In this document: piece by piece, positions 2,850-30,108 of the stretch
Position numbering within the stretch: position 1 is the stretch's first letter
How the letters are laid out: the number at the start of each line of letters is the position of its first letter
NCBI GenBank assembly: GCA_029935075.1
Contig: JAOZKZ010000001.1
Span: 1 to 54,949 of the forward strand
Length of the DNA stretch: 54,949 nt
Source of the DNA: Campylobacterales bacterium
Lineage (GTDB): Bacteria; Campylobacterota; Campylobacteria; Campylobacterales; QNZT01
Direction of reading: 5' to 3'
Program-made: the position numbers and the translations under genes
The notes under the pieces: model-generated
Seen by the model: only the letters and a program-made list of their open reading frames with translations
What the model was told of the DNA's origin: nothing
The model's database searches: none

Positions 2850-3227
2850 ATGAAACCGATAAGACTGTCAGAAGCAGAACAAAAGATAGATTTCGATAAT
2901 TTAGAGAACTCATGGATGGACCTAGACGAGTTCGTGTGCTTAAAGGATACTTTTATAGCAAGAACCCTCCCACAGAACACGAAAAAAGAAACCGAAAGTG
3001 GTCTGATTTTATCCACCCAGGCTGATTCAGTGGTAAATGATCGTCCTGATGCAGGGGTGGTGGTATCAGTAGGACCAGAAGCCGAGTTCAGGGTAGGTGA
3101 GTACATTTTCATACAGAAGGGGCATGGATATGACCTAGCCAATATAAGGAAAGACCCAAAAGCAGATTATAACTACTTGTTATTATATACAGATGCTGTA
3201 ATAGGTAAGAAAAGCCCAAAGGAATAA
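2850..3227 (+). CDS. GroES/gp31-like co-chaperonin (candidate)
   Basis: Size (125 aa) and motif order resemble Cpn10: KKETESGLILS (mobile-loop region, cf. ETKSAGGIVL), AGVVVSVGP (cf. GEVLAVG), VGEYIFI (cf. VGDIVIF), YLLLYTDAVIGKK (cf. VLIMSESDILAIV). Confidence 0.5.
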   Translation: MKPIRLSEAEQKIDFDNLENSWMDLDEFVCLKDTFIARTLPQNTKKETESGLILSTQADSVVNDRPDAGVVVSVGPEAEFRVGEYIFIQKGHGYDLANIRKDPKADYNYLLLYTDAVIGKKSPKE

Positions 3228-3871: not shown

Positions 3872-4132
3872 ATGAAAGAAACAAGACAAGAAAGAAAAGC
3901 CCGAAAAAAAGCATTCATGAGCCTGACGAAGTATTACACATTGGTACAAAACGACAGGACGGGTTATGTTCAACTAACACCAAGAGAAAAGGCATTTCAG
4001 ATGATACACGGTGTAATGGAACTTGGTTACAGGGTAAACAACCTCAAAGACATATACAAAGAAGTCCAGAACCCCAGGTCAAGAAAGAGAAACCACAACT
4101 ATACCTACCCAGAAACAGGAAATAAAAAATAA
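3872..4132 (+). CDS. small basic hypothetical protein
   Basis: ORF with an aaggaataataATG RBS, lying between the two paralogs. Confidence 0.55.
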   Translation: MKETRQERKARKKAFMSLTKYYTLVQNDRTGYVQLTPREKAFQMIHGVMELGYRVNNLKDIYKEVQNPRSRKRNHNYTYPETGNKK

Positions 4133-4776
4133 TGCTAAAGGAAATGGCAGTACAGACTGGTATTTCAGGTGACGGGGCTCATGAAGGCAAGGGAGACTGG
4201 GAATATAATAAAAAGTATAATTTCATCAAACTTGTGAATGATAAATTAGGTTCCAAGTCTTATCAAGTATATAAGACCATTACCCCTGGGATTTTTACTT
4301 ATTTTTTAACCAAAGATGATAATTACAGAGGTAAAATACAAGTACAAGAAGTAAAAAACGGAATACAGATAATAGCATCACACAAAGAAAGCATAAAAGG
4401 ATTTTATCAGATAATGTTTACTATTATGTTGAAAGAATACAAAGAGATTTATTCTGATGTGATGCTTTCTACTCAGGCAATAAAAAGTTATGAAAAGTTA
4501 TCAAAAAAACATACTTTATTTAATATATATGTAAAAGAAAACCAAGAATATATACCATTTAGTAAAGAAGCCTTGTTAAGAGACAAGAACAACACGGTAG
4601 TAATTAAGGTTCAGACCAAGAATGAAAATTTCATCAAAGAACACCTCGATGAATACTATAAAAGAATACAACAAACCGAAAACAACAAACCATCTTCATT
4701 CATGAAAATGTTTATTACTAAAGACCAAGAACTGGATCAATATTTGTTCGGCAATTTAACACAAAAAGGAAAATAA
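4132..4776 (+). CDS. hypothetical protein, paralog of 3229-3852
   Basis: TAATG overlap with the preceding gene. The paralogy blocks are listed under 3229-3852. Confidence 0.7.
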   Translation: MLKEMAVQTGISGDGAHEGKGDWEYNKKYNFIKLVNDKLGSKSYQVYKTITPGIFTYFLTKDDNYRGKIQVQEVKNGIQIIASHKESIKGFYQIMFTIMLKEYKEIYSDVMLSTQAIKSYEKLSKKHTLFNIYVKENQEYIPFSKEALLRDKNNTVVIKVQTKNENFIKEHLDEYYKRIQQTENNKPSSFMKMFITKDQELDQYLFGNLTQKGK

Positions 4777-5021
4777 TGCTTTATTTCATAGAAAGAGAAA
4801 CCCAAGAGCCTTTTGAAGGCTCTATCAGAGAGTGTCAAATCAACACCAAGGTGTACGATATAGTCCCCCAAGGCAGGAATGTGGGGTTAGACAGGATTTC
4901 TGACCATGTTATCAATGACACCAGTTGGACATTTGAGAAAACAGACCCAAGGGAACAACAAATAATAAGAGAATTCGTAGAAGAGAATTTCAACAAGATG
5001 AATGATCTTCTTTTAGGCTAA
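4776..5021 (+). CDS. hypothetical protein
   Basis: TAATG overlap with the upstream gene. Confidence 0.6.
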   Translation: MLYFIERETQEPFEGSIRECQINTKVYDIVPQGRNVGLDRISDHVINDTSWTFEKTDPREQQIIREFVEENFNKMNDLLLG

Positions 5022-5025
5022 AAGA

Positions 5026-5265
5026 ATGAATACACACACAGCATCACTAAGAGTAAAAGAGAAAATGGACTCCTCAAGGATGATAGACCTTTATCAAGAC
5101 AAAGACCATTTGCATCATATGATCCAGGAGATACAAAAAATGGACCTAAGGGTTAAAAAAACAAATGAAAAATCACACAGATGGCTCGGATGGCTTCAGG
5201 CTATGGTAGTAGAACACTCCGAGATGACCCTGGAGATGATGAAAGACATAAACAAAGGCTCTTAA
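5026..5265 (+). CDS. hypothetical protein
   Basis: ORF directly following 4776-5021. Confidence 0.55.
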   Translation: MNTHTASLRVKEKMDSSRMIDLYQDKDHLHHMIQEIQKMDLRVKKTNEKSHRWLGWLQAMVVEHSEMTLEMMKDINKGS

Positions 5266-5534
5266 TGAATATAATAACACTTGGTGGTAAAAGCATCACG
5301 GCTTCTGAATACTACTATGATTGTCCGTTCGACTACTGGGACAACATGCTATACAAGGATGCAATCATTTCAAGGAGAGACAAGGCCTTTGAACTCTACA
5401 TCAGGCTTACCGAAAGTCAGCTTCTCCCTGAGCCTAAAATCCTTGCCCCAGAGGATGAGATAAGAGCCTTTAAAGTAGAAAAAGCATACAAGGATTGTCA
5501 GCAACTTTGTGATGAAAGGGGCTTGATTCTTTGA
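5265..5534 (+). CDS. hypothetical protein (start revised from 5181)
   Basis: ATG 5265 overlaps the stop of the previous gene (TAATG) and follows aaaggc plus 5 nt. The track start at 5181 would overlap 85 nt of the upstream gene. Confidence 0.55.
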   Translation: MNIITLGGKSITASEYYYDCPFDYWDNMLYKDAIISRRDKAFELYIRLTESQLLPEPKILAPEDEIRAFKVEKAYKDCQQLCDERGLIL

Positions 5535-6358
5535 ACCCTGAAACCCCTAAAGAACTAGACCAGTGGTACACCAGCCCTGAGACTGCCAGTATTTGCATAG
5601 GGTTTATGAAGCCTTATATGAAAAAGAATATCCTTGAGCCTTCTTGTGGTACAGGGGTGTTCATCAAGCTGTTGGAATCAATGGGTTATAATATCAAGGG
5701 ATTTGACATAGACCCCAAGACCCCAGAAGGTATAAAGAAGGATTTCTTCTTGGTCAAAAAGGATGACATTTTAAAGGACTCGGTAACCATAGGGAACCCT
5801 CCTTATGGTAAAAAAGGCAAATTAGCCCAAGGGTTTATTAACCATGCCTTGAGTCTCTCTGATACAGTAGGGTTTATTGTGCCTTTGACTTTAAGTACTT
5901 CTTACACTGCCCAGAAACACATCAACGAAAATGCTTCCTTAATCCTTGAGGAACCTCTTCCAAAGAATAGTTTTGTGTTCAAGGGTAAAACAAAGGATGT
6001 AAAAAGTGTTTTTCAAATTTGGAGTTTAGTAACAAACCAAAGAGACCTAAGGCTCAAAAAACCCCAGACACAGCATCCAGATTTTGAGACCAGGATTTAC
6101 AACAAGACCCAAGGTGCCTTGAAATATCTCGATTGGGACTGGGACATTGCTATTAAAAGAAATACAAAAAACGGGGAGTTTATTACCGAAGGGAAAGCCT
6201 CGGCTGATTACCATTGGATGCTCGTTAAGGTAAAGAACAAAGAAATCCTAAAGAGGTTTCTTAAGATAGACTACACCAGGATAAACGATAACAAGATGAC
6301 AGCAGGGATGGGGAAGGCTGATATTGTTAAGGCTTATTTAGAGGTTAAGAAATTTTAA
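5531..6358 (+). CDS. N6-adenine DNA methyltransferase (gamma-class-like)
   Basis: QWYTSPE, motif I EPSCGTGVF, motif IV GNPPYG. The TTG start overlaps the upstream stop (TTGA). The conserved QWYTSPE lies upstream of the first ATG, which supports the TTG start. Confidence 0.8.
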   Translation: MNPETPKELDQWYTSPETASICIGFMKPYMKKNILEPSCGTGVFIKLLESMGYNIKGFDIDPKTPEGIKKDFFLVKKDDILKDSVTIGNPPYGKKGKLAQGFINHALSLSDTVGFIVPLTLSTSYTAQKHINENASLILEEPLPKNSFVFKGKTKDVKSVFQIWSLVTNQRDLRLKKPQTQHPDFETRIYNKTQGALKYLDWDWDIAIKRNTKNGEFITEGKASADYHWMLVKVKNKEILKRFLKIDYTRINDNKMTAGMGKADIVKAYLEVKKF

Positions 6359-7736
6359 CCCATCCTATATTTTCTAAGTTCTTTACATTTTGTACTTTAA
6401 CTGTTGGGTTTAAGCCAAATACACGATTTTGGTATCTTAAATGTAAATCTATCTGGGCATAATTAGGGGAAATAGAAACCTCTTGTGCTTCAGTGGTTAT
6501 TTTTATGGTAAACATAACACCAGCAACACCCTTCCCCATCTTATAGTTTATGTCTGTTTTTTTTACGATTAGCTTATTCTCACTAAATTCATTAGAAGAC
6601 GGGACATAGTATAGTTCTTTTAACGATTGATAAAAATATGGATTATCAGCAATAGCCAGTTTCTGCATAATCTCAGAATTTGTTGAGAACGATTCAAAGA
6701 CCATTTCAGATATATTCTTCGCTAGTGTATTATAAACCAAATCCGATAACTTTTTAAATTCACTGCTATTTTGAATAGCGTAATTTCCAAACACAGCATA
6801 ATGTGGGTTCGTTGTTGCTATATTGGTCTTTTGTTTTAAATTTGTTTCGGTAAATTTGTATTTACCTTCTGGGGTTTTATCGTCATCAGGATCAACTAAT
6901 TTTTCTTTACCTGTCCCTGATTTGTATTTTATATAAAATACTTTTTCTTCTTTATTGTACATTATATAGTAATGAGAATCTTCTGGGGTTTCACTACTAA
7001 ATGTAAATTTTTTCCCAGGTTCTTTTTTTACTAATTTTATAGCACTCGTGACTACCTTTTTTTTCCAATTAAACCAATAAGAATCTCCCGAGGATTGCCC
7101 TGTTTCTCTATCTCGACTATATTTTGATATGGCATCTTCACCTCTGTTTGTTGTTAGTTTTAAAGAATCTGGTGACAGGCTTTTTAATGTTACGGCATTT
7201 ACCGATTTAACAGATATCCCAGCAACAACAGTATCAAACCCTACATCATCTGGTGCTGCTGTGCCACTTGCATTTTGCAACCCTGCCCAAGAAAATTGAC
7301 TAGGTTTGGTTTTTTTAGTTTTTGTTAAATATTCAGTGACTTTTAGTCTAAATGTTTCTGAAATGCCAAAAGATGACATAAATAATTTTTCATCATAAAA
7401 CCCATTTAATGCTTCGGCTATTAGAGAAAGGGTCAACTCAGAGTTGTTTATCTTTTTCTCATCAAAATAATCTTTTAAATACTCCGTTGTGAATATTATA
7501 TCTTTTGATTTTTTAGCTTCTTTTAAGTTGTTTTTTTCAAAACCTTTGAAGTCACCGTTTTGAGCATATGCTAATAAACAAGGAATTTCAGAGTTGTATT
7601 TTGTTTTGTCTGATGTTCCTCCTTCGTTTATACTCTCTTCGTTTATACTCTCTTCGTTTGAACATCCAAAAAAATACTCTGCTAAAAAAACACTCTTATG
7701 TTTACATTCCTCACTTAAATATTCCTTAAACCCCAT
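6345..7736 (-). CDS. hypothetical 463-aa protein, the only convincing minus-strand gene
   Basis: Long ORF. On the minus strand the RBS is aaaggc plus 5 nt before the ATG, and a TATAAATA box lies upstream. The N-terminus MGFKEYLSE matches the shared leader. It carries an in-frame NEESI NEESI NE repeat. Its 3' end overlaps the methyltransferase gene by 14 nt. Confidence 0.75.
   Translation of the reverse strand: MGFKEYLSEECKHKSVFLAEYFFGCSNEESINEESINEGGTSDKTKYNSEIPCLLAYAQNGDFKGFEKNNLKEAKKSKDIIFTTEYLKDYFDEKKINNSELTLSLIAEALNGFYDEKLFMSSFGISETFRLKVTEYLTKTKKTKPSQFSWAGLQNASGTAAPDDVGFDTVVAGISVKSVNAVTLKSLSPDSLKLTTNRGEDAISKYSRDRETGQSSGDSYWFNWKKKVVTSAIKLVKKEPGKKFTFSSETPEDSHYYIMYNKEEKVFYIKYKSGTGKEKLVDPDDDKTPEGKYKFTETNLKQKTNIATTNPHYAVFGNYAIQNSSEFKKLSDLVYNTLAKNISEMVFESFSTNSEIMQKLAIADNPYFYQSLKELYYVPSSNEFSENKLIVKKTDINYKMGKGVAGVMFTIKITTEAQEVSISPNYAQIDLHLRYQNRVFGLNPTVKVQNVKNLENIGWVKIS
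7622..7659. repeat. 15-bp tandem repeat, 2.5 copies (cttcgtttatactct)
   Basis: Read at 7622-7636 and 7637-7651, with a partial copy at 7652-7659. On the minus strand it encodes NEESINEESINE in gene 6345-7736. Confidence 0.9.
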
Positions 7737-7751
7737 CTTGTGCCTTTCTAA

Positions 7752-7759
7752 TATTTATA
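7752..7759 (-). promoter_or_regulatory. candidate late promoter box TATAAATA for the minus-strand gene
   Basis: The plus strand reads tatttata, which is TATAAATA on the minus strand. It lies 15 nt upstream of the minus-strand ATG at 7736. Confidence 0.45.
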
Positions 7760-7763
7760 AATA
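7756..7763 (+). promoter_or_regulatory. candidate late promoter box TATAAATA for the paralog array
   Basis: Exact TATAAATA 15 nt upstream of ATG 7779. It overlaps the minus-strand box by 4 nt. Confidence 0.5.
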
Positions 7764-7778
7764 CTACAAAGGCTAAAA

Positions 7779-16939: not shown

Positions 16940-17379
16940 TGTATAAATTTATCAAAGAGTTAGAAAAAGACATAAGAAGAGAATCTAATATGTATTTTAT
17001 GTTCGAGGACATAAACCAAGAATACAAAGACAACATGACTATTTTGTTCAATTCTTTGATACAAGAGACTATCACCTCAGCAGTGTCTTATAAAATACAA
17101 TCAGAAAAAGTAATAGGTATAAAAGCCAATGAGCAAAAAGAAGCCCTAATAGAGCAATCCAAGGCTAAGTTCAACCAGTTTAATAAACTTGTGTCTTATG
17201 CTTCATTAAGTGGTGTACTAAATGAAATCGAGTTTACCACAGAACAGGATATTATAGAATCAGCAAGGAATTACGAAGATGCTTCTAAAATAGCAAATAA
17301 AGAAGGTGACACCAAGACCAGGGTATTTTTAGAAAGCCTGATGGACGAAGACCTCGAATTTTATGATAAACAAAACTAA
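16939..17379 (+). CDS. hypothetical protein (GTG start)
   Basis: GTG overlaps the upstream TAG by 1 nt and follows gaggag plus 5 nt. Confidence 0.5.
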   Translation: MYKFIKELEKDIRRESNMYFMFEDINQEYKDNMTILFNSLIQETITSAVSYKIQSEKVIGIKANEQKEALIEQSKAKFNQFNKLVSYASLSGVLNEIEFTTEQDIIESARNYEDASKIANKEGDTKTRVFLESLMDEDLEFYDKQN

Positions 17380-17388
17380 AGGAAAATA

Positions 17389-17946
17389 ATGACATTTAAA
17401 GACTACTTAACAGAGGATACAAGAGAAATACAAGAGGATAAAATAGCCGTGCTTTTATGCCTGGCTGAGAATGAGATTCTGACTGAATCTTACATGAGCG
17501 AGGCAGTAATTCTCGAGGGTGTTAAAGATTGGCTCAGTAAAGTGGGACTCAAGGTTCACAAAGGCGATGGTGTTATTGACTATGTTAGACAATTCAGCAC
17601 AGGTGCCGGGAAGCTTATTCTCGCTGCCATAAGAGGTGACAAAGAAGAGGTCAAAAGAATTGCCATGAGCCTTGACAGAGCCAAGGTAGTGGATTTTATT
17701 TTGAAGTTGGATCTCATCTCGCTTCACCTTATAACTGGCCCGATCCACTTTATTGACGGTCTCACGGGACTCGATTTAACAGCTAACCTTAAACATGCCG
17801 CTGAGGGTGCTAAATCAATGCTACAACAGACATGGGATGCACTGGTCCAAGTAAAAAATAACATATCAAGGGTAGTAAAAGGTGACAACCGAAAGGTTAT
17901 CTTTAATCATATCAACAATATAGAAAAAAACCTACCTAAGCCTTAG
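17389..17946 (+). CDS. hypothetical protein
   Basis: MTFKDYLTE leader. RBS is aaaggaaaataATG. Confidence 0.65.
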   Translation: MTFKDYLTEDTREIQEDKIAVLLCLAENEILTESYMSEAVILEGVKDWLSKVGLKVHKGDGVIDYVRQFSTGAGKLILAAIRGDKEEVKRIAMSLDRAKVVDFILKLDLISLHLITGPIHFIDGLTGLDLTANLKHAAEGAKSMLQQTWDALVQVKNNISRVVKGDNRKVIFNHINNIEKNLPKP

Positions 17947-17947
17947 A

Positions 17948-18733
17948 ATGATAGAACAAAAAGCTTGTGTTTACTGGATTACTTACTCAGGGGATAAACA
18001 CCCTAAGAACTATATAGGGTCTGTTTATACAGAGAAAATATCACAAGGATATATGGGTTCTTGTAGTTCTAAAAAATGGGCTGATATAGTCAAAAAAGAA
18101 CAAAAAGAACATCCTTGGTTATACACAGTAAAAATCATACATGAATGCGACACAAGAGAAGATGCCGGTATCATGGAAGGCTTGATACAAAAGATGTATA
18201 ATGTGGTTAACTCAGATGATTTTTGGAATATGTGTATTTCACATAATGGGCATATATATACCTGTAGAAAAGGTATAGAACCTTGGAATAAAGGCAAAAG
18301 AGGAGTTTATTCTGAAAAAACATTAAACCAAATGTCCGAATCGAAAAAGGGTGTGAAATTTCACACACCCGAATCCAAAAAACTACTAAAAGAAATAAAC
18401 ACTGGTGAATTAAATGCTTTTTATGGAAAACATCACACAGAGGAACTTAAAGCTCAATGGAGATTGGACCGTAAAGGTACTCAAAAAGGTGATAAAAATA
18501 GAAATGCCAAGTCAATAAATATATACAACGAAAATGGTGTATTACAGTATAGTTGTTTTGGTAATTTTATAGATACTTGTAAACTGAATAATCTGCCTAG
18601 TGCCGCATTGGGTAAATCATACAGAAACAATGGCGAACCTTTATATCAATCACAATCACCCCAGGCACACATACAAGAGCGATATAAACAATTCAAAGGG
18701 TGGTATGCTGTGTTTACCAAACCTAAGCCTTAA
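17948..18733 (+). CDS. GIY-YIG homing endonuclease (I-TevI/Seg-like) with NUMOD3-type DNA-binding repeats
   Basis: CVYWITYSGDKHPKNYIGS (GIY...YIG); downstream REDAGIMEGLI...N; repeated PWNKGKRG / SESKKG / FYGKHHTEE linker motifs; C-terminal helix-turn-helix-like segment. Confidence 0.85.
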   Translation: MIEQKACVYWITYSGDKHPKNYIGSVYTEKISQGYMGSCSSKKWADIVKKEQKEHPWLYTVKIIHECDTREDAGIMEGLIQKMYNVVNSDDFWNMCISHNGHIYTCRKGIEPWNKGKRGVYSEKTLNQMSESKKGVKFHTPESKKLLKEINTGELNAFYGKHHTEELKAQWRLDRKGTQKGDKNRNAKSINIYNENGVLQYSCFGNFIDTCKLNNLPSAALGKSYRNNGEPLYQSQSPQAHIQERYKQFKGWYAVFTKPKP

Positions 18734-18899
18734 TGAACCCAGGCACCACAAGGGTAACCCCCGAGTGGTGTTACAAAGAGTTATACCAAAAGGGAATAAA
18801 TCACCACCTGAGTAAACATCAATCTAATCTGTATGCCGTGAGGTGTACATGGAAAATGTATATTTACTATACTACTGGGGTGAAACCTAAAGGAAAAAG

Positions 18900-19715
18900 A
18901 TGAAATTTAAAGAATACCTAAAAGACCCTAAAGACCTCAATGAGTACATAAACAACAACTCAATGGAGAAAGAATGGAGTCTTATTCTTAAGGGTTGGAT
19001 TCCATTAAGACCAAGCCTTTTGGACTCTATGGAGATAGACAAGGTGTATCATGTGACTGATATAGCGAACTACGACAACCTAATCAAATATCAAAACCAG
19101 AAAAAGCAAATTTCCACTTTCACTAAAGGTAAAGAATGGCTGGCTTCTGGTGCCCGGACAAGGGGTGGTGTATTGGTAGAACTTAGGGGTAAAACGGTAT
19201 TCGTTTCGCCTAGTGACCTTTTCAGTGCCTTGTCAAGAAATGGTTACAGATGGATACAACCATCATTAGGTATGAAAAGATCAAGGGCTTTTGCCACCAA
19301 GGTTCAAGAAAAAGTATACCAGTATCTAAGAGACCAGACTAATTCCAACAAGATTCCTAAAAAAGTAATGGTAGGTTTGTTGTCAACCGCTGGCATAAAC
19401 CCTTTGTATAACCTTGTAGACGAACTCCCAAAAAATGAAAAAAGAGATTTTATTAAGTTTTACTTTGACCTGATAAAAAAGGAAATGAATAAACAAGTAA
19501 AAGACGATATCTTTAAGGATTTATTAGAACTCCAGGATGGAAATATATCCAATGAGGTGCTTTTGCATGACTACAAAATCATAAAGACATGGAGCATAGA
19601 CCAAGAATACGAAGACGAGAACAACCTTATACATAATTACATAGAAAAGAATGGTATCAATTACCAAGGCATGATAAAAAGAACCGTCCTTAATGACATA
19701 AAGAAGCTAAAATGA
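18900..19715 (+). CDS. divergent relative of the 7779-14439 family (retains His)
   Basis: MKFKEYLKD leader; VYHVTD; KYQNQKKQISTFTKG; GVLVELRGKTV; NGYRWI; FYFDLIKKE; SNEVLLHDYKI. Confidence 0.7.
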   Translation: MKFKEYLKDPKDLNEYINNNSMEKEWSLILKGWIPLRPSLLDSMEIDKVYHVTDIANYDNLIKYQNQKKQISTFTKGKEWLASGARTRGGVLVELRGKTVFVSPSDLFSALSRNGYRWIQPSLGMKRSRAFATKVQEKVYQYLRDQTNSNKIPKKVMVGLLSTAGINPLYNLVDELPKNEKRDFIKFYFDLIKKEMNKQVKDDIFKDLLELQDGNISNEVLLHDYKIIKTWSIDQEYEDENNLIHNYIEKNGINYQGMIKRTVLNDIKKLK

Positions 19716-20287
19716 AATTTAAAGAATACCTGAAACAAGACCTAAAAGACTTAAATGAATCAACCTTGACTATTTACCACGGGGATAATCACGAAACCAA
19801 AAAAATAGACCCTAAGTTGATGATGAACGGTAATGTTCAAGAAGGAATAGGGATATATTTCGGTAACCTTGTGGTAGCCAAATCTTATGGCAAAGATATA
19901 GTCCAGGCTGAGGTGAACCAAAAGGATTTTAAACCAAGCAGAGGAACAGTCAAAAGAAACCTTAAATTAGCATACAATATACTAAGAGACCTTTGGCATA
20001 TTGACCCTGAGAGTATGTATTATCTTATTACCGATTGGGTAGAAATAGTAGAAATAGAAGACATTACTCATGATGACATAAGACTATTAGCCCAAAAAAT
20101 GGGTTCTGATGAGGTCAGGAATTTTCAGATTACCCTTGCTGAGGCATTTGGTGTAGAGAATTTTGTAAAAATATGGAATAAAGTATACCCAAAGAACACA
20201 GGGACTTATGATAAAGATACTGGTTTTTATGCTATAATAAACCCTAAGGTACCTTTAGTTCCTTTTAAGGAACAAGATGAAATTTAA
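19712..20287 (+). CDS. small protein with PARP-like H...Y...Y motif spacing (candidate ART fold)
   Basis: MKFKEYLKQ leader; LTIYHG (His23), GIGIYFG (Tyr49), AKSYG (Tyr59). Confidence 0.65.
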   Translation: MKFKEYLKQDLKDLNESTLTIYHGDNHETKKIDPKLMMNGNVQEGIGIYFGNLVVAKSYGKDIVQAEVNQKDFKPSRGTVKRNLKLAYNILRDLWHIDPESMYYLITDWVEIVEIEDITHDDIRLLAQKMGSDEVRNFQITLAEAFGVENFVKIWNKVYPKNTGTYDKDTGFYAIINPKVPLVPFKEQDEI

Positions 20288-21047
20288 AGAATACCTGAAA
20301 GAGACTGAGATGAATGAGTACACCAAACACAAATTATCCGAGCTTATAAGCCTCAGGGCTATCCCTCTTTCTGAACCTATGATGAAAAGATTAGGATATT
20401 ATTGGGAAGACACCGTGGTGTATCACCTTACTAACTCCAAGAACCTCCCTGGGATGACAAAAGACCAGAACAAAAAAGCCCATATTTCTACATTTTCTAA
20501 GGGTGGTGCCGAGCTTGCCCGTTTACCATCTCAACCTGATGTACTTCTTAGGCTCAAGGGTGACGAGGTAATCCAAGGAAAATCTGATATATGGAGCCTT
20601 ACAGACACTCAGAATAGAAGATGGCTGGATATTAAAACGGATTCCAAAGGCGGTGAAACACTGTATAATTTTCTGAATGGGGTCTTACAGAAAGTCCTCA
20701 ACCAAAATGACTTAAACATAGAGCTTCAAAGAGGGAAGTCATTCGGTGGTGACAGAAACCTTGAGGTAGAGCTTAATAAGCTCACTAAAAAGCAAAGAAG
20801 TAAAATATATGGTATGTATATAGAAGAGGTAGAAAGATTCTTGAACTCTAGCTACAAGTACCTGAATACTTATCTTAATAACCTCAATCAGTTCCATTAC
20901 AATGAAATCATCCTAACGAATTGGGAAATCCTTGATGTAAAAAGCATAGAGATAGAATCCCCTTTGACTGTTAAGATGTGTGCCGAGCTTGGGTTGGTTT
21001 ATTCAGGGGTTATTCCAAGGAAGAGACTCTCTGGTTTGGTGATTTAG
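20277..21047 (+). CDS. divergent relative of the 7779-14439 family (retains His)
   Basis: MKFKEYLKE leader; VYHLTN; DQNKKAHISTFSKG; LLRLKGDEV; NRRWLD; YNEIILTNWEI. Confidence 0.7.
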   Translation: MKFKEYLKETEMNEYTKHKLSELISLRAIPLSEPMMKRLGYYWEDTVVYHLTNSKNLPGMTKDQNKKAHISTFSKGGAELARLPSQPDVLLRLKGDEVIQGKSDIWSLTDTQNRRWLDIKTDSKGGETLYNFLNGVLQKVLNQNDLNIELQRGKSFGGDRNLEVELNKLTKKQRSKIYGMYIEEVERFLNSSYKYLNTYLNNLNQFHYNEIILTNWEILDVKSIEIESPLTVKMCAELGLVYSGVIPRKRLSGLVI

Positions 21048-21090
21048 TTTTAAGGTTAATATGGTATAATATGGTATAATACGGTATAAT
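21048..21090 (+). promoter_or_regulatory. early promoter with three tandem -10 elements
   Basis: ttttaaggttaat followed by atggtataat atggtataat acggtataat (21061-21070, 21071-21080, 21081-21090). Confidence 0.65.
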
Positions 21091-21106
21091 ACAACAAAGG
21101 AAAAAT

Positions 21107-21457
21107 ATGAAAAGATTTAAAGATTTATTTGAAAAAAGAGAGCAATTAGATGTGGAAAAAATAGGTATAGATATAACCAACGATGGTGAAGATATAGATC
21201 AATTTGAAATATACCTAACCGTAGACACTAATGACATAGAAGATTCAGGGGCTGACTATGGTGAAGATGATAGTTATACTTGGGTTTATGATTGGATACC
21301 AAAAGATAAAAGAGCTAAAAGTCTAATAAAAAAATATAAATTAGAAAAACTTATAGATAAACTTGAATTTACTAGTGGTAAATGGTCGCCAAATCGTTTC
21401 AAAGATGACACTACTGCCTGGGTTGATATAGGAACACAAGATAGTAGTATGTATTGA
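21107..21457 (+). CDS. hypothetical acidic protein
   Basis: MKRFKDLFE leader-like start. RBS is aaaggaaaaatATG. Confidence 0.6.
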   Translation: MKRFKDLFEKREQLDVEKIGIDITNDGEDIDQFEIYLTVDTNDIEDSGADYGEDDSYTWVYDWIPKDKRAKSLIKKYKLEKLIDKLEFTSGKWSPNRFKDDTTAWVDIGTQDSSMY

Positions 21458-21807
21458 TGAAACCTAAGCAAATAATAATCATAAGAAAAGACCTCAATAT
21501 GACCAAAGGTAAATTAGTAGCCCAGGGGGCTCATGCTTCACTTTTGGCATTCCTTAAGGCTGATGAAAAAATCAAAGAAGAATGGCTCAATGACGACTAC
21601 ACCAAGATAACCCTTGGGGTCAAGTCCGAAGCCAAATTACTCAGTGTATTCAATATAGCTGTGCTAAAGGGACTCCCGGTGGTATTGATAAGAGACCAAG
21701 GATACACAGAGTTCCCGGAGCCTTGTAATACATGTGTAGGGATAGGTCCAGTATACCCAGATGAACTTAAAGGTGTCACCGATAAGCTACAGACACTAAA
21801 GGACTAA
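21457..21807 (+). CDS. peptidyl-tRNA hydrolase, PTH2 (archaeal/eukaryotic type)
   Basis: Near full-length motif match to PTH2: IIIRKDLNMTKGKLVAQGAHAS, W....TKITLGVKSE..L, LIRDQGYTEF, CVGIGP, VTDKL. ATG 21457 overlaps the upstream stop (TGATG); the track start at 21454 is a TTG. Confidence 0.85.
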   Translation: MKPKQIIIIRKDLNMTKGKLVAQGAHASLLAFLKADEKIKEEWLNDDYTKITLGVKSEAKLLSVFNIAVLKGLPVVLIRDQGYTEFPEPCNTCVGIGPVYPDELKGVTDKLQTLKD

Positions 21808-21808
21808 A

Positions 21809-22786
21809 ATGAATTTTAAAGAATACTTAGAAACAGGAATAGAGAGAACAGAGGTAAAGACAGAGGCGGTTATTACCAAGTTTGAAAAAGACGAACTCAA
21901 GACCATTCAAGAAATCCTTTGTATCATCAAAGACCACAAAGGCAAGCTGACCTATAGAGGGTTCAGTGGCATGAACCAGACCATAGGCACCGTGTCTAAT
22001 AAAAGAAGCAGTTTTTACGGTGCCTTGAGAAAAGAAGTCCATAGTTTCATCAAAGGACCCCTTGGTGTGAAATACCCTACCTTTGCCACCACGGATGAAA
22101 CCCAGGCTATGATGTTCGGGCAGACCTTTATATTCGTGTCCAAAGGGACAGGATATGTTCATACTTATATGAGAGATATTTTATCGGATACCACAGAAGA
22201 TACTAATTTTGAGGGAATGGAGAAAGGTTTCACCAAAGGCGATATAGATGATGTTTCAAAAAGAGCCATGGGTGAAATCATAGTAGACACCCCTGAGTAT
22301 TATCTGATAAATTACAAATACCTGGCAGGGGATTTCAGGTCTAAGTTTTTCAAGCCTAAAAAAGAGGCAAAAGACTGGCAAGATGTCTATGACCTTTTAT
22401 ACAATATACTGAAATATGAAAACTGGAAGATAAAAAACAACAAAAGAGATTCTTTTGAGGTAAACCAGCAAAAGCAAAAGAAAATGAAACTAGACCGTGA
22501 AAATGCCATTATTAATATGTACTCAAAGAAGCAAAGAGACCTAAGACTAAAGACAATAAGACAAGACACATTAAAGCACAAATTGCCTTTAATACAGTCT
22601 CAAAAAGAAATAAACAAAGTCCAACACTTACATAAATCAGACGGCAAGAGCATAACCCTGACATTCAAATACAAAAAAGACCCTAAAGTGATCTTGAAGT
22701 ATTATCAAGACCACGAAGAAAAGTTCAGCTCTGAGAATATGACAAGGTTCATTCGAGTACAAGGGTATGATTTAATTCTGGTTTAG
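21809..22786 (+). CDS. hypothetical protein, possible Arg-type ART-like N-terminal domain plus K-rich tail
   Basis: MNFKEYLET leader; KLTYRGF; about 43 aa later TFATTDETQAMMFG, which can be aligned to STFT....IFWG of the tandem family. No clear ExE motif. Confidence 0.65.
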   Translation: MNFKEYLETGIERTEVKTEAVITKFEKDELKTIQEILCIIKDHKGKLTYRGFSGMNQTIGTVSNKRSSFYGALRKEVHSFIKGPLGVKYPTFATTDETQAMMFGQTFIFVSKGTGYVHTYMRDILSDTTEDTNFEGMEKGFTKGDIDDVSKRAMGEIIVDTPEYYLINYKYLAGDFRSKFFKPKKEAKDWQDVYDLLYNILKYENWKIKNNKRDSFEVNQQKQKKMKLDRENAIINMYSKKQRDLRLKTIRQDTLKHKLPLIQSQKEINKVQHLHKSDGKSITLTFKYKKDPKVILKYYQDHEEKFSSENMTRFIRVQGYDLILV

Positions 22787-22789
22787 CGG

Positions 22790-22822
22790 TTTAAGTTTAT
22801 TTTAATCATTTTGTGGTATAAT
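22790..22822 (+). promoter_or_regulatory. early promoter cassette
   Basis: tttaagtttattttaatcattttgtggtataat, with TATAAT at 22817-22822. Confidence 0.65.
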
Positions 22823-22839
22823 ACCATAAAGGATTAAAA

Positions 22840-23352
22840 ATGGACTCTAGGAAAGTATTATACAACAAAGTAGGGAATGATGAAAATTACACCCCTTTTT
22901 ATGGCGTAGAGCCTATTTTAAAATACATACCCCGGGGTGCGGTAGTTTGGTGTCCCTTTGATACCCCTGAGAGTGAATTTGTCAAACAAATCTCCAATCA
23001 GAATAAAGTAGTCTTTTCTCACATAGACGAGAGTAAGGACTTCTTTGAATACGAACCAGAAAACTGGGATATAATTGTATCCAATCCTCCCTTTAAAAAC
23101 AAAAAGCTATTTTTCCTGAGGGCATTAAGCTTCAATAAACCCTTTGCTCTTTTGATGACCCTTGCATGGCTGAACGACTCGGCACCTAAAAAAATATTCA
23201 AGGATAAAGCCTTGGAGCTTTTGATGTTCGACAAGCGAATAAAATTTACTAATCCAGATGGCAGACCTAACAACAAAATCACATTTTCTAGTGCTTATTA
23301 TTGTCATGATTTTTTGCCCAAGCAAATAATAATGGAAGAACTTAGCACCTAA
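22840..23352 (+). CDS. small N6-adenine methyltransferase-like protein
   Basis: IIVSNPPF (motif IV, [DN]PP[YF]); VVWCPFDTPESEF (motif I-like); NYTP near the N-terminus. Confidence 0.6.
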   Translation: MDSRKVLYNKVGNDENYTPFYGVEPILKYIPRGAVVWCPFDTPESEFVKQISNQNKVVFSHIDESKDFFEYEPENWDIIVSNPPFKNKKLFFLRALSFNKPFALLMTLAWLNDSAPKKIFKDKALELLMFDKRIKFTNPDGRPNNKITFSSAYYCHDFLPKQIIMEELST

Positions 23353-23365
23353 GCACCTAAGCTCC

Positions 23366-23389
23366 TTTTAAGCAAAAGTGTGGTATAAT
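23366..23389 (+). promoter_or_regulatory. early promoter cassette
   Basis: ttttaagcaaaagtgtggtataat, with TATAAT at 23384-23389. Confidence 0.7.
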
Positions 23390-23420
23390 ATGGTATATTC
23401 TGAGAGAGAAAAGGACAAAG

Positions 23421-23621
23421 ATGGAAGTAATAGAATTTAAGTTCAAAAGAGAGCTATGGAAAGTCCAGGTGTACCAAAACAGGATTGATATTTTTGTGGA
23501 TGCTTTGGGTCAGTGGACATTCGTAGACACTCAGAAAACATACTCAAAAGACCCTGTAAAAGATGCTAAAGGGATCATCAGACAATTTAAACAATACAAG
23601 GAGCCTTCTAAAAATGACTAA
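23421..23621 (+). CDS. hypothetical protein
   Basis: First ORF after the promoter. RBS is aaaggacaaagATG. Confidence 0.55.
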   Translation: MEVIEFKFKRELWKVQVYQNRIDIFVDALGQWTFVDTQKTYSKDPVKDAKGIIRQFKQYKEPSKND

Positions 23622-26668: not shown

Positions 26669-28273
26669 TTGATAGAATTAGTAGAAGGAAAAGAACACAT
26701 TGTTATAAAAAGGAACGGGACACCAGAGCCTTATAACGAACACAAAATGAAAAAAGTCCTTATGTGGGCTTGTAATGATAAAGAGATGTATGTCAAAGAA
26801 CTCTTAAATGACATAGAACTTAAAGTGTTCAATAAAATATCCATACAGAAATTATTTAACGAGGTGATTGAAACCTGTGCCAATAAGATTTCGGATATGT
26901 ACCCAGTCTGGGACGAGGTAGCAAAACGGTTGTATATCCAAAAGATTTACAAAGAAACCTGGGGTATAAAGAGAACACAATACCCTTATTATGGTGATGT
27001 CCTAAGTAAAGGCACCCAGTACGGGGTGTATGATTCAGATGTTATTGATACCTTTACCGAAGAAGAAATCAAGATGCTGGATGAAGCCATCAAACCAGAA
27101 AGAGATTTTGATCTGACTTACCTAGGCTTAAGGGTTTTTATTGACAAGCAAAGCAAACACTACACGGTTACAAAACCCTTGGAGCTACCTCAACACGGGT
27201 TCATGAGACTGGCTTTATTTGCCTTTTATAAAGAAATTGATCGTATTCCTTTGATTATACAAAGATATAATGACCTGAGCTTATTGATGTATTCAGAAGC
27301 AACACCTAAATGGATGAACTCTTTGTCGAAGAACCCTCAGATGGCTTCGTGCGTGGTCTCGAAGCTACCCGATAACTCATGGGGGATTAATAAGACCATT
27401 TCTAACCTTGGGTTGTTTTCTAAACACGGTGGGGGCTTGGCATGTGATGTATCAAGCATCAGGGCTACTGGCTCAAAAATAGGTAAAAACGGGGTCTCAA
27501 GCGGACCTATTCCATTTATCAAAATGATAGAATCTACCGTGAATGCCTATAACCAAAACGGCTCAAGACCAGGGGCATGTGCTGTTTACTTCTCTTGGTG
27601 GCATTATGATTCACCAGAGATGTTAGAGCTAAAAGAAGAAGGGGGTACAGAAGACCGCAGAGCAAGGAACCTTAAGTATGGCTTAAAGTGGAATGAACTG
27701 TTCACTCAAAGAATACTTGATAACAAAGATATTACTCTTTTTGACCCCAAGGAAACCCCTGAGTTATTGACCACTCACGGGGAAGAGTTCGACAAATGGT
27801 ACTGCTTCTATGAGAACAAAGATCGTATCAAGAAAAGAAAAATGAAAGCAACCGAACTAGCATTTAGCATCACCAAGCAAAGAATAGAAACAGGCAATAT
27901 CTATATATTTTTTGAAGAGAATACCCAGAATCAGAACATCTTTAAAGAGCAGATTTTTAGCTCAAATTTATGTGTATCTGGCGATACTAAAATTAGTATA
28001 GAAACTAATGATGAAATAAAAATGATTGAAATACAAGATTTAGAATATTATATCAATACAGAAGTAAAGGTATTATCAATGAACACAAAAACATCAAAAA
28101 AATCTTATAAAAAGATAACTGATTTTGCTATGACTTCAAAAAAGGCTAAAGTGATTAAAATTACACAAGAAAATAATACTATAACATGTACACCAGAACA
28201 TAAAATATATACAAAAAGAGGTTATATAGAAGCTCAGTTTTTACAAGAAAATGATGAGATAATTTATGAATAA
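26669..28273 (+). CDS. nrdA: ribonucleotide reductase alpha, N-terminal fragment (434-aa N-extein) fused to a 100-aa split-intein N-half
   Basis: TTG start after aaagga plus 5 nt. ATP-cone-like VIKRNGTPEPYNEHKM. The extein ends at SSNL. Cys435 (27971) starts CVSGDTKI (intein block A), followed by TCTPEH (block B), and a stop comes after 100 intein residues. Confidence 0.9.
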   Translation: MIELVEGKEHIVIKRNGTPEPYNEHKMKKVLMWACNDKEMYVKELLNDIELKVFNKISIQKLFNEVIETCANKISDMYPVWDEVAKRLYIQKIYKETWGIKRTQYPYYGDVLSKGTQYGVYDSDVIDTFTEEEIKMLDEAIKPERDFDLTYLGLRVFIDKQSKHYTVTKPLELPQHGFMRLALFAFYKEIDRIPLIIQRYNDLSLLMYSEATPKWMNSLSKNPQMASCVVSKLPDNSWGINKTISNLGLFSKHGGGLACDVSSIRATGSKIGKNGVSSGPIPFIKMIESTVNAYNQNGSRPGACAVYFSWWHYDSPEMLELKEEGGTEDRRARNLKYGLKWNELFTQRILDNKDITLFDPKETPELLTTHGEEFDKWYCFYENKDRIKKRKMKATELAFSITKQRIETGNIYIFFEENTQNQNIFKEQIFSSNLCVSGDTKISIETNDEIKMIEIQDLEYYINTEVKVLSMNTKTSKKSYKKITDFAMTSKKAKVIKITQENNTITCTPEHKIYTKRGYIEAQFLQENDEIIYE

Positions 28274-29157
28274 TTATATGAAAGAAGTCCAAAATATTTG
28301 TTTAACAGCATGGATAAGACCTAAACAAGATGATATAGATTATGAAAAACATCATTATTGTCCTCGGTCTTTAGGAGGATCAGATGATGAAAATAATATA
28401 GTAGATTTGACATTACAAGAGCATTTTAAAGTCCATTTGTTGCTAGCCCAACATTATATTGAAGTAAAAGATAAAAGCAAGTCTGATAGTATGATAAGTG
28501 CTTGCTGGATGATGTCAAACAGAGGTAAATATAATGAAAAATATATGGCAACTCCTGAAGAGTATGAATTTTTAAGAAAAAAACACAAAGCAATAATGAA
28601 AACAAAAATGTCAAAAACAATGACAGGTAAAATGCCTGTATATGATATTAACGATGACGATAGAAAAATTTTTCATGCTTCTGTAAACGACCCTATGGTA
28701 AAAAGTGGAGAGTGGGTACACCATACAAAAGGATCGAAAACATCAAAAGAAACACTAAAAAAATTAAGTGATGCCTTTTCTGGTGTGAAAAATCCAAGAT
28801 ATTCCGGGATAACCGATAACGAAATAATTGAATATAGTTTAGAATTATTTAATATTTTAGGGTTCATTCCTGCATTAAGTAATGTTAGAAGATGGACAAA
28901 ATTAAAATATAATGTTGATATACCTAAACATTTTACTAAATTTAGATTCCCTGATAAATCGTGGAAAGAGCAAATGGAAGAACAAACAAACATGACATAT
29001 AACCGTTATCAACGAGGTAAAAATAGATTAAAAATTAGAGAAGTATTGAAGGAACAAAATGTTAAAAATTGAAATACAAGAAAAAGAAATCCCTGTTTAT
29101 GATATAACGGTTCAAGACAACGAAAACTTTTTTGCTAATAATTTATTAGTTCATAAC
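27971..29157 (+). mobile_element. split mini-intein (Int-N 27971-28270, Int-C 29059-29157) with a free-standing HNH homing endonuclease gene between the halves
   Basis: Blocks A and B are at the end of the first ORF. Blocks F and G (VYDITVQDNENFFANN, LLVHN then +1 Cys at 29158) are at the start of the third ORF. Joining the exteins restores the RNR motif SSNL-CGEISIP. Confidence 0.85.
28266..29072 (+). CDS. HNH homing endonuclease
   Basis: KHHYCPRSLGGSDDENNIVDLTLQEHFKVH (HNH motif). It overlaps both nrdA fragments by a few nucleotides. Confidence 0.8.
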   Translation: MNNYMKEVQNICLTAWIRPKQDDIDYEKHHYCPRSLGGSDDENNIVDLTLQEHFKVHLLLAQHYIEVKDKSKSDSMISACWMMSNRGKYNEKYMATPEEYEFLRKKHKAIMKTKMSKTMTGKMPVYDINDDDRKIFHASVNDPMVKSGEWVHHTKGSKTSKETLKKLSDAFSGVKNPRYSGITDNEIIEYSLELFNILGFIPALSNVRRWTKLKYNVDIPKHFTKFRFPDKSWKEQMEEQTNMTYNRYQRGKNRLKIREVLKEQNVKN

Positions 29158-30108
29158 TGCGGAGAAATATCCATTCCTGCTATTAGTCCAAAAGAACCAA
29201 GGGCAGTCCTTTCCAAAGATTTTGATAATAACATCAAGCTTAAAGAGTCCTTTGACCCAGGGATGATTGCCCTGTGTAACCTGAGTTCAATAAATGTAAT
29301 CAAATGGATAACACTTTCCGATAAAAAGAAAGAAAAAATGACCTATAATCTTTTAAGGGCTTCTGATAATCTCTTGGATTATGCTTTTTATCCGTCCAAA
29401 GAAGGCGAGGTTTTCAATAAAAACTACAGGGCTATAGGGATAGGGATTACTAACTATGCCCAGTTTTTAGCCCAGGGTAAGCTGAAGACCAAAAGCAAAG
29501 AAGCACTTAAAGAGACCAATGACCTCTTGGAGGATATTTACTACTTCTTGATGAAAGGGAGTATAAAATTAGCCAAAGAAAGGGGCAGATATTCGGAGTA
29601 TTTCAGCTCTGAGTATTCCAAAGGAAATCTTATTTTTGACTTGTATCAGGGGCCTTATAATTTTAGGTTAAATAGAGATTGGAAAGAAATAAGAGAAGAC
29701 CTGAAGCAATCGGGAGCAAGGTTCAGCACATTAATGGCTATAGCCCCCACCGCTACGAGTTCACTTATACTAAATTCGACCGAGGGCATAGAGCCACCAC
29801 GGCAATTAGTCTCAATGAAAACAGGGACTTATACATGTAAGCAATTAGTCCCTAATATAAAGAAACTAAGACAAGATTATGAACTAGCCTGGGATATTGA
29901 CTCTTTTGATATGATTAACCTGAGTTCAGCACGGCAAAGGTTCATAGACCAAGGTCAGTCTTTGTCCTTGTATTATAAAGACAGGAACGAGTCTGCCACA
30001 GAGGTACTAAAAGATATTATATATGCCGAGAAAATGGGACTAAAGAGTCTTTATTATGCATTTACATTACAGCAAGATATAGAAGAGTGTTTGTCTTGTT
30101 CAGTTTAG
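29059..30108 (+). CDS. nrdA: 33-aa split-intein C-half fused to ribonucleotide reductase alpha C-terminal fragment (316-aa C-extein)
   Basis: RBS is aaggaacaaaATG. It starts MLKIEIQEKEIPVYDITVQDNENFFANNLLVHN, then CGEISIP. The C-terminal redox pair is ECLSCSV. Confidence 0.9.
   Translation: MLKIEIQEKEIPVYDITVQDNENFFANNLLVHNCGEISIPAISPKEPRAVLSKDFDNNIKLKESFDPGMIALCNLSSINVIKWITLSDKKKEKMTYNLLRASDNLLDYAFYPSKEGEVFNKNYRAIGIGITNYAQFLAQGKLKTKSKEALKETNDLLEDIYYFLMKGSIKLAKERGRYSEYFSSEYSKGNLIFDLYQGPYNFRLNRDWKEIREDLKQSGARFSTLMAIAPTATSSLILNSTEGIEPPRQLVSMKTGTYTCKQLVPNIKKLRQDYELAWDIDSFDMINLSSARQRFIDQGQSLSLYYKDRNESATEVLKDIIYAEKMGLKSLYYAFTLQQDIEECLSCSV

Follow-up and report, generated by a model that had tools for sequence, protein, structure and literature searches.

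What do four neighbouring open reading frames (ORFs) at the end of a gene array in an uncultured large phage have in common? The window analysed here is a 54,949-nt fragment of such a phage, to whose full length all positions refer, and the ORFs in question, 18900-19715 (271 residues), 19712-20287 (191 residues), 20277-21047 (256 residues) and 21809-22786 (325 residues), all on the plus strand and named below by their start positions, lie downstream of a core array of eight tandem paralogs (7779..14439, plus strand). A preliminary description had taken all four to be divergent relatives of the array that open with the same MKFKEYL or MNFKEYL leader, and had proposed that about 12 genes might have one fold in common. 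The ORFs and motifs it quoted are all present, and so is the leader on each of the four. Judged by sequence comparison, this leader is what the four have in common, and it also stands on proteins unrelated to them; the four ORFs probably belong to an enlarged locus of a T4-like phage whose products are targeted to the capsid, trimmed by a protease and injected.

A leader shared by unrelated proteins

A hidden Markov model (HMM) of the core array, built from the eight upstream paralogs (7779-14439) with their first 12 residues removed, detects 18900 (E 1.3e-18) and 20277 (E 6e-16) but scores 19712 (E 3.2) and 21809 (E 1e+02) no better than unrelated neighbours. Likewise, an HMM of the wider array family (profile A4) matches 18900 at 5.5e-72 and 20277 at 1.3e-64 and finds neither 19712 nor 21809. 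When profiles were compared by hhalign, the array family and the 19712 family aligned over the leader only (probability 13%), and 21809 and the array family over eight leader residues (probability 1.8%). With the leader alone aligned, a single family for all four ORFs was rejected. Kinship with the array, for which the preliminary description had proposed the core-array HMM as a test, thus stands for 18900 and 20277; for 19712 and 21809 it falls, the absence of a profile-profile relationship that the same description had named as evidence against itself being what we found.

The leader itself reaches further. A start of the form M-x-F-[KR]-x-Y-[LMF] is carried by 18 ORFs within 6345-22786, a locus of 16.5 kb: ten array-family paralogs, 19712, 21809, a DUF6267 protein, a cytidylyltransferase, three small proteins and a 463-residue protein on the minus strand. 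Each core-array copy has it in the form MxF[KR]xY[LM], and 18900, 20277 and 19712 begin with MKFKEYLKD, MKFKEYLKE and MKFKEYLKQDLKDLNE, respectively. The strict pattern occurs on none of the 52 plus-strand ORFs outside the locus, nor on any real ORF elsewhere in the window.

Could the leader nevertheless be an ancestral remnant, with the four ORFs and the array as diverged paralogs of one ADP-ribosyltransferase (ART) fold, of which the His and Arg forms are the active ones? This is the alternative that survives best, and we hold it to be improbable. It draws on the paralogy of 18900 and 20277 with the array, on the ART nature of 19712 (see below) and on a motif pattern in the array family that is compatible with an ART, in which the first strand contains [HR]51 with a Thr after it, the second contains S72-x-F74, and a further strand opens with an invariant [ND]-E219-[IV]-[LIV]. 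Because of this combination of [HR], S-x-F and [ND]-E, an ART-like core in the array family is plausible rather than established, its chances lying slightly below even. The AlphaFold2 (AF2) model of 18900 (predicted local distance difference test, pLDDT, 82.8; predicted template-modelling score, pTM, 0.79) finds no significant neighbour when searched with Foldseek against PDB and BFVD (lowest E 0.13, no probability above 0.33). Among its PDB matches with E < 1, 12 of 17 are ART-fold chains (E 0.16-0.9), which represent KptA, diphtheria/chelona toxin and TreTu, three different families, and none of which is significant (probability 0.33 or lower). An hhalign comparison of the array family with E. 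coli KptA pairs VYHVT with LYHGT at a probability of 0.15%, and across 108 array-family members Pfam yields no recurrent family and not one ART match, PHROGs a single stray match. Beyond the leader the array family has no profile relationship to 19712 or 21809, and the leader is borne as well by the DUF6267 protein, the cytidylyltransferase and, in related loci, a P-loop kinase, and is exchanged wholesale in other phages. One fold for about 12 genes therefore remains unproven.

A candidate capsid-targeting signal and its phage context

Is the leader a peptide or a stretch of nucleic acid? Nucleotide identity across the leader genes is 0.77 over codons 1-7, 0.37 over codons 8-16 and 0.33 at -30 to -16, with 0.53 in the 15 nt directly upstream, which include an AAAGG ribosome-binding site. 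Leu7 is encoded by TTG, CTG, CTT, TTA and CTA, five codons from both Leu families, and since identity drops outside codons 1-7 while Leu7 uses so many codons, the leader is conserved at the peptide level. Both Phe codons and both Tyr codons are in use as well, with Lys or Arg at position 4. This bears on the possibility that the leader is a translation feature, a ribosome-binding site with an AT-rich 5' cassette, or a recombination cassette like PeSL, in which the peptide plays no role. AAAGG is indeed conserved 6-8 nt upstream, codons 2-4 are AT-rich (AAA TTT AAA), and modular shuffling via conserved regulatory cassettes in T4-type phages is documented (PMC2839356, PMC4122927). We nevertheless think such an explanation very unlikely, given the amino-acid-level conservation just described and the fact that the leader is missing from all 52 other window genes, well-expressed ones included. 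In addition, the order aromatic-x-x-aromatic-aliphatic-x-Glu is kept in sequences as divergent as MKSFQEFINE and MKRFKEYLNE, the leaders MIREAI and MRAIELYE of other phages follow another pattern with the same aliphatic-x-Glu ending, and the fused protein P0122 retains a copy, FKEYLKE, that lacks Met and lies internally between its two domains.

As a peptide, the leader resembles the capsid targeting sequence (CTS) of phage T4. The T4 CTS is MKTYQEFIAE and is cut once (PMC8442874); targeting needs its residues 4 and 7, processing needs residues 8 and 10, and the protease gp21 cleaves after L/I-X-E (PMC9026906). Written as M-x-F-K-x-Y-L-x-E, the window leader matches all four mapped CTS positions with F3, Y6, L7 and E9, in a register one residue shorter, and intermediate forms (MKTFKEYINE, MKTYKEILME and MKSFQEFINE) are found on homologs elsewhere. 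An [LI]-x-E site lies within residues 5-18 in 14 of the 18 leader genes, as against 8 of the 52 other ORFs; among our four ORFs, three have it within 16 residues (in 18900 there is an L-N-E site at residues 13-15), 21809 being the exception. Taken as a step on its own, the identification of the leader as a capsid tag is likely.

Related metagenomic loci, numbered here with the prefix L, place leaders of this type beside T4-like head genes. In L009, which encodes Phage_T4_gp13, Portal_T4, Peptidase_S77, T4_CASP and Gp23, a 94-residue gene with the leader MKSFNEFLNE sits between the protease and scaffold genes, and Gp23 is followed by two MKSFQEF[IL]NE genes and by an ART homolog (MITFKNYLNE) that has the same leader type as 19712 and lies 3 kb from Portal_T4, Peptidase_S77, T4_CASP and Gp23. 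L006, which has three genes in common with the window, carries its ART homolog immediately after the genes for terminase and a T4 neck protein. In L016 a His-type array-family gene with an MKFKEYL leader (1012-2481 of that locus) immediately follows a homolog of Phage_T4_gp2; in T4, gp2 is a head-packaged, injected protector of DNA ends. L008 is syntenic with the window, with a family gene, DUF6267, the cytidylyltransferase and an eight-gene family array, all tagged, and loci from IMG/VR hold MKRFKEYLNE arrays together with a tagged P-loop kinase.

Other lineages have the same kinds of genes under different leaders. L011 contains a family-ART-family triad as in 18900/19712/20277, yet all three genes begin with MIREA[IL]. 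In the jumbo contig L003 (362.9 kb, JGI Ga0222664_1000004) 16 consecutive genes at 3947-16005 start with M[RK]A[IY]EL[YF]E, among them a bona fide ART-PolyVal protein, an AAA_33 kinase, a second protein reading KFYHGT and a cytidylyltransferase homologous to that at 15654 of the window (6e-23). The leader covaries with lineage: it follows the phage, not the protein family, which is what a virion-address signal predicts and what common descent of the proteins can hardly account for.

The neighbouring genes are also linked by fusion. Two metagenomic proteins, P0127 (1353 residues) and P0137 (1218 residues), combine two array-family domains and a C-terminal DUF6267-like K-x-D-G domain in one chain; P0127 has in addition an N-terminal cytidylyltransferase-like domain (Pfam E 1.2e-5), and P0137 gave no Pfam match. 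Read-through artefacts of gene calling were ruled out for both, as neither internal leaders nor Met starts are found at the domain borders. The families joined in these chains are neighbours in the window and in L008, and the fusions tie the neighbouring window genes together functionally.

To a peptide signal with some other purpose, such as recognition by a cytoplasmic chaperone or protease, assembly into a non-virion complex or timed degradation, we give little credence: although packaging is something we infer, the cytidylyltransferase and 21809 lack the cleavage motif, and the fusions of cytidylyltransferase, array-family and DUF6267 domains in P0127 and P0137, together with conserved synteny, suggest a common and possibly cytoplasmic pathway, the leader matches the experimentally defined T4 CTS at the four mapped positions, is associated in genomes with portal, protease, scaffold, capsid, neck, gp2 and terminase genes, and would deliver ARTs to the head, for which Alt and the polyvalent proteins set a precedent (PMC5512222, PMC9503650).

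The upstream regions of the tagged genes were also inspected. Overlapping, palindromic copies of TATAAATA, the T4 late-promoter consensus, occupy both strands at 7752..7763, 16 nt upstream of the divergent starts 7779 (plus) and 7736 (minus), and further copies lie at 12673-12680 and 16241-16248. The motif thereby stands 12-16 nt upstream of the starts 7779, 7736 (minus strand), 12695 and 16260, and it also precedes tagged operons in L008, L009, L013 and L018. What is suggestive here is solely where the copies lie. A scan of 6000-23500 for sigma-70 promoters and terminators gave nothing usefully above background.

By analogy with the T4 internal proteins and with Alt, the tag would dock a protein to the scaffolding core of the prohead, whereupon a gp21-type prohead protease would cleave at [LI]-x-E, directly after its Glu. 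Once matured, the protein would remain in the DNA-filled head and enter the host with the genome, and so would act on the host ahead of any phage gene expression. In the case of 19712 the target is probably a host protein, in the manner of Alt, which modifies RNA polymerase, and AcrIF11, which modifies Cas8f.

Against an injected, capsid-targeted set of proteins weigh several observations. What the sequences and models show is how the families are related, an ART fold for 19712, where the leader occurs and how it covaries with lineage, and that T4-type head genes lie close by in related contigs. Packaging, cleavage, injection and all substrates are steps that we infer, and the 55-kb window holds no head, scaffold or prohead-protease genes, so that T4-type morphogenesis of this phage is deduced from related contigs only. 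Cargo of 18 species, 400-residue enzymes included, would be far above what T4 is known to package. The leader has nine residues, compared with ten in the T4 CTS, and a canonical [LI]-x-E is missing from four of the 18 leader proteins (13537, 15654, 16260 and 21809). Nor is TATAAATA enriched overall, with 12 copies found and about 10 expected, and its association with leader genes is weak (11/67 versus 28/302).

Compared with the CTS-bearing internal proteins of T4, the locus has the same elements: a leader of about ten residues with two aromatics three apart followed by aliphatic-x-Glu, placed on unrelated proteins in a T4-like background, with a cargo set that varies by phage and, in T4, includes the anti-defence protein IPI*. 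It differs in scale and content. T4 has three CTS-bearing internal proteins (IPI-III) where 18 genes are tagged here, and the putative cargo, instead of small basic proteins, consists of enzymes of 190-460 residues and a paralog family with ten members, with packaging and cleavage predicted in our case. The ejection (E) proteins of the jumbo phages SPN3US and phiKZ-like offer a second parallel, since they too comprise many head-internal proteins that are cut after Glu by a gp21-related protease and delivered to the host; unlike here, their cleavage motif is S/A/G-x-E, they belong to different families, and they have not been described as sharing a short N-terminal tag.

Proteins injected with the genome act before phage gene expression and are therefore prime candidates for activity against host defences, but short of virion proteomics they are difficult to recognise. 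Should the leader prove to load capsids, one phage would yield 18 candidate injected proteins, and there would be a simple rule for metagenomic phages: look for unrelated neighbouring genes that share a phage-specific N-terminal tag ending in aliphatic-x-Glu. Going further, uncultured T4-like and jumbo phages might load a large, modular "first-strike" proteome via short lineage-specific tags, and the array family might be an unrecognised [HR]-S-E ART clade; this wider reading is offered tentatively, as a possibility with the balance tilted against it. The tags concerned may be MxFKEYLxE, MIREAIxxxE and MRAIELYE, and the cargo families that recur under one tag or another are a solo ART of ART-PolyVal type, a DUF6267 K-x-D-G enzyme, an NMNAT-like cytidylyltransferase, a P-loop kinase and the array family of about 750 clusters. 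On this wider reading, the injected proteome of uncultured phages could be read from sequence through the common tag.

The array family, a probable stand-alone ADP-ribosyltransferase and an orphan

Pfam, PHROGs and NCBIfam scans of the four ORFs and the array members found no significant family, and PDB sequence searches with profiles A3, A4 and A5 returned nothing relevant. Among 50,697 GenBank phage records there is no close relative of the window; searched against the same records, the region (by megablast) and 18900, 19712 and 21809 (by tblastn) gave only one chance match (E = 6).

On their profile matches and motifs, 18900 and 20277 are canonical, His-type members of a new, unannotated family that includes the core array. 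The first reads KVYHVTD, QNQKKQISTFTKG, VELRGK, GYRWI and SNEVLL, the second VVYHLTN, QNKKAHISTFSKG, LRLKGD, NRRWL and YNEIIL, and both have all of the family blocks, Q-[NG]-x-K-K-x-I-S-x-F, L-x-G, D106, G-R-R-W and [ND]-E219. A word-indexed search found 22 relatives; in a full profile search, 1.84 billion cluster representatives yielded 756 (E up to 1e-3). None is encoded by any GenBank phage. Orthologs of 18900 (P0018-P0022) are 35-45% identical to it, and 20277 has a close homolog in L008 (2e-99). In at least two phages, family members flank a 19712-type ART.

The two ORFs had been set apart from the core copies by a His that the latter have lost, and the wider family bears this out. Of 158 sequences, 100 have H and 18 have R at this position; those with neither belong nearly all to a C-F-x-[AS] clade that includes the window array, where all eight core copies read C-F-x-[SA], and the rest are fragment gaps and one Ser. 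D106, R117-W118, S72-x-F74 and E219 are retained in both the H/R and the C-F-x-[AS] forms. As H or R occupies the position in most sequences, 18900 and 20277 represent the typical form and the eight-gene array a derived one, which on this alignment is a lineage-specific expansion that has lost His/Arg. On the wider, tentative reading given above, its eight copies may act as binders or decoys. A His-less paralog array of this kind resembles arms-race diversification. The family as a whole is a further lead: it is large and unannotated, has genetic ties to an ART and occurs, in other phages, fused to nucleotidyltransferase-type domains.

The product of 19712..20287 (plus strand) is a stand-alone protein for which we propose, with considerable confidence at the level of the modelled fold, an ADP-ribosyltransferase of ART-PolyVal/AcrIF11 type. 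It carries the motifs LTIYHG (H23), GIGIYFG (Y49) and AKSYG (Y59), which the preliminary description had read as a His-Tyr-Tyr ART. That reading is upheld at fold level: the AF2 model (pLDDT 92.5, pTM 0.86) finds AcrIF11 (6KYF), a diphtheria-toxin-like ART, by Foldseek at E 1.9e-4 and probability 1.0, and H23 and Y59 are invariant in the family. We found 73 homologs, every one of them metagenomic, and no contig encoding the window's own protein came up in the search. N41, G45, G47, F50, A56, G60, R136, W155 and G164 are invariant as well, and Y49 is at least 90% conserved. Pfam ART-PolyVal (PF18760) was matched by 28 of 58 family members at E up to 0.1 (best 6.6e-6), compared with only 4 of the 58 for the next-best Pfam family. 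With the bona fide ART-PolyVal protein of L003, the family aligned by hhalign at a probability of 35% (E 4e-4), with YHG, GI[YF]F and YG in register. PARP1, PARP16 and Tpt1 are weak Foldseek matches. The second match, chain 9k3a_B of the cyanophage A4 pre-ejectosome (E 7.8e-3), was set aside as uninterpretable, since its paper describes no ART domain.

Descriptions of ART-PolyVal domains give them a His in the first strand, a Tyr in the second and an Asp in the fifth (PMC5512222), and present them as virion-packaged and injected (PMC5512222; PMC9503650). In 19712, H23 lies in predicted strand 18-25 and Y49 in predicted strand 48-51, the first two strands, and in AcrIF11_Pae2 the residues H20 and Y46, which have the spacing of H23 and Y49, are required for activity. 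An ART with a predicted His-Tyr active site is thus very likely. What counts against the assignment is that 19712 itself has no Pfam match at E up to 1, that its best homologs score 25.6-27.4 bits against PF18760, below the gathering cut-off of 31.2, and that no conserved Asp is found in a predicted strand of the family; for the acidic residue, D108, conserved to at least 90%, and D167/D169 come into question, position 167 being mostly Asn across the family.

With ART-PolyVal (PF18760, Tox-ART-HYD2 clade) the protein shares the His of strand 1 and the Tyr of strand 2, about half of its family being sub-threshold matches to PF18760; those domains are predicted to be packaged in virions and injected, and the ART-PolyVal gene of L003 carries the local leader. 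It differs from the ART-PolyVal domains of giant polyvalent proteins in being a single domain with a CTS-type leader, below the Pfam cut-off and with no strand-5 Asp identified. AcrIF11, its best structural match, is likewise a small ART with a helical insert, but identity is 12% and the TM-score only 0.36-0.47, and AcrIF11, encoded by temperate phages and plasmids, is expressed once these have entered, and it is not known to be packaged. T4 Alt is an ART that reaches the head by way of an N-terminal propeptide, is trimmed by the protease and is injected, as 19712 would be. Unlike Alt (682 residues, R-S-E, Alt/VIP2 clade), 19712 has 191 residues, a His-Tyr pair and a place in another ART clade, and no sequence similarity between the two is detectable. 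Small, stand-alone and related to an anti-CRISPR enzyme, this ART is a lead in its own right.

The fourth ORF, 21809..22786 (plus strand), is an orphan cargo candidate unrelated to the array family, with no match in Pfam, PHROG, NCBIfam, PDB or GenBank phages. It carries the leader, KLTYRGF (R50) and TFATTDETQAMMFG (T91-G104), and has no canonical [LI]-x-E after the leader. Its sole homolog, P0097 (42% identity, leader MKFKDFILE), conserves YRGF, PTFATTD and GEIIVDT. An ExE motif is absent; a G-E-I-I-V block stands where it would be expected in both proteins, and F-A-T-T-D is conserved, in a comparison of two sequences only. At the level of these motifs, an Arg-type ART is a lead and no more.

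Other genes of the locus and of the window

Upstream of the array and divergent from it, the unrelated 463-residue protein (6345..7736, minus strand; leader MGFKEYLSE) has no family match in Pfam, PHROG or NCBIfam. Directly downstream of the array lies the DUF6267 protein (14439..15644, plus strand; leader MNFKKYM), which matches Pfam PF19782 at E 6.8e-75 and phrog_455; its K-V-D-G motif is typical of ligase/capping nucleotidyltransferases. The cytidylyltransferase/NMNAT-like protein (15654..16238, plus strand; leader MSFKNYL, no [LI]-x-E) matches phrog_3041 at E 3e-34 and, below cut-off, TIGR00482 at E 8e-5. An NAD+-related or RNA-repair link between the genes at 14439-16238 and the ART-like genes is possible.

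Three small leader-bearing proteins follow on the plus strand (16260-16670, 16679-16939 and 17389-17946), with homologs in L008 and L006, and a ferritin-like ORF (16939-17379) lies among them (16260..17946). The tagged 136-residue product of 16260-16670 has a basic C-terminal half rich in Lys, Ala and Gly and recalls the small basic internal proteins of T4. Inside the locus, 17948-18733 encodes an endonuclease of GIY-YIG/group-I-intron type that has no leader (TIGR01453 E 3e-4, below cut-off; L006 homolog 1e-20). Between 20277-21047 and 21809-22786, the ORF 21107-21457 begins with MKRFKDLFE, a degenerate leader-like start, and 21454-21807 encodes a peptidyl-tRNA hydrolase of PTH2 type (Pfam E 1e-28) with a TTG start and no leader. 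Two ORFs flanking the tagged locus, 5531-6358 (IGNPPYG) and 22840-23352 (VSNPPFK), have NPPY/NPPF-type motifs suggestive of DNA methyltransferases and no Pfam match at E up to 1e-3.

Elsewhere the window encodes a gp63-type RNA ligase, a DNA ligase, tail-fibre proteins, NrdB and an NrdA whose gene is interrupted by that of a homing endonuclease. The two parts of the gene for the ribonucleotide reductase large subunit lie at 26669-28273 (N-terminal) and 29059-30108 (C-terminal), with the homing-endonuclease ORF (28266-29072, phrog_655) between them. A Cpn10/GroES-like ORF at 2850-3227 falls just under the Pfam cut-off (20.8 versus 21.1 bits), and an FG-GAP repeat protein (52688-54091, Pfam E 3e-90) stands among the tail-fibre genes.

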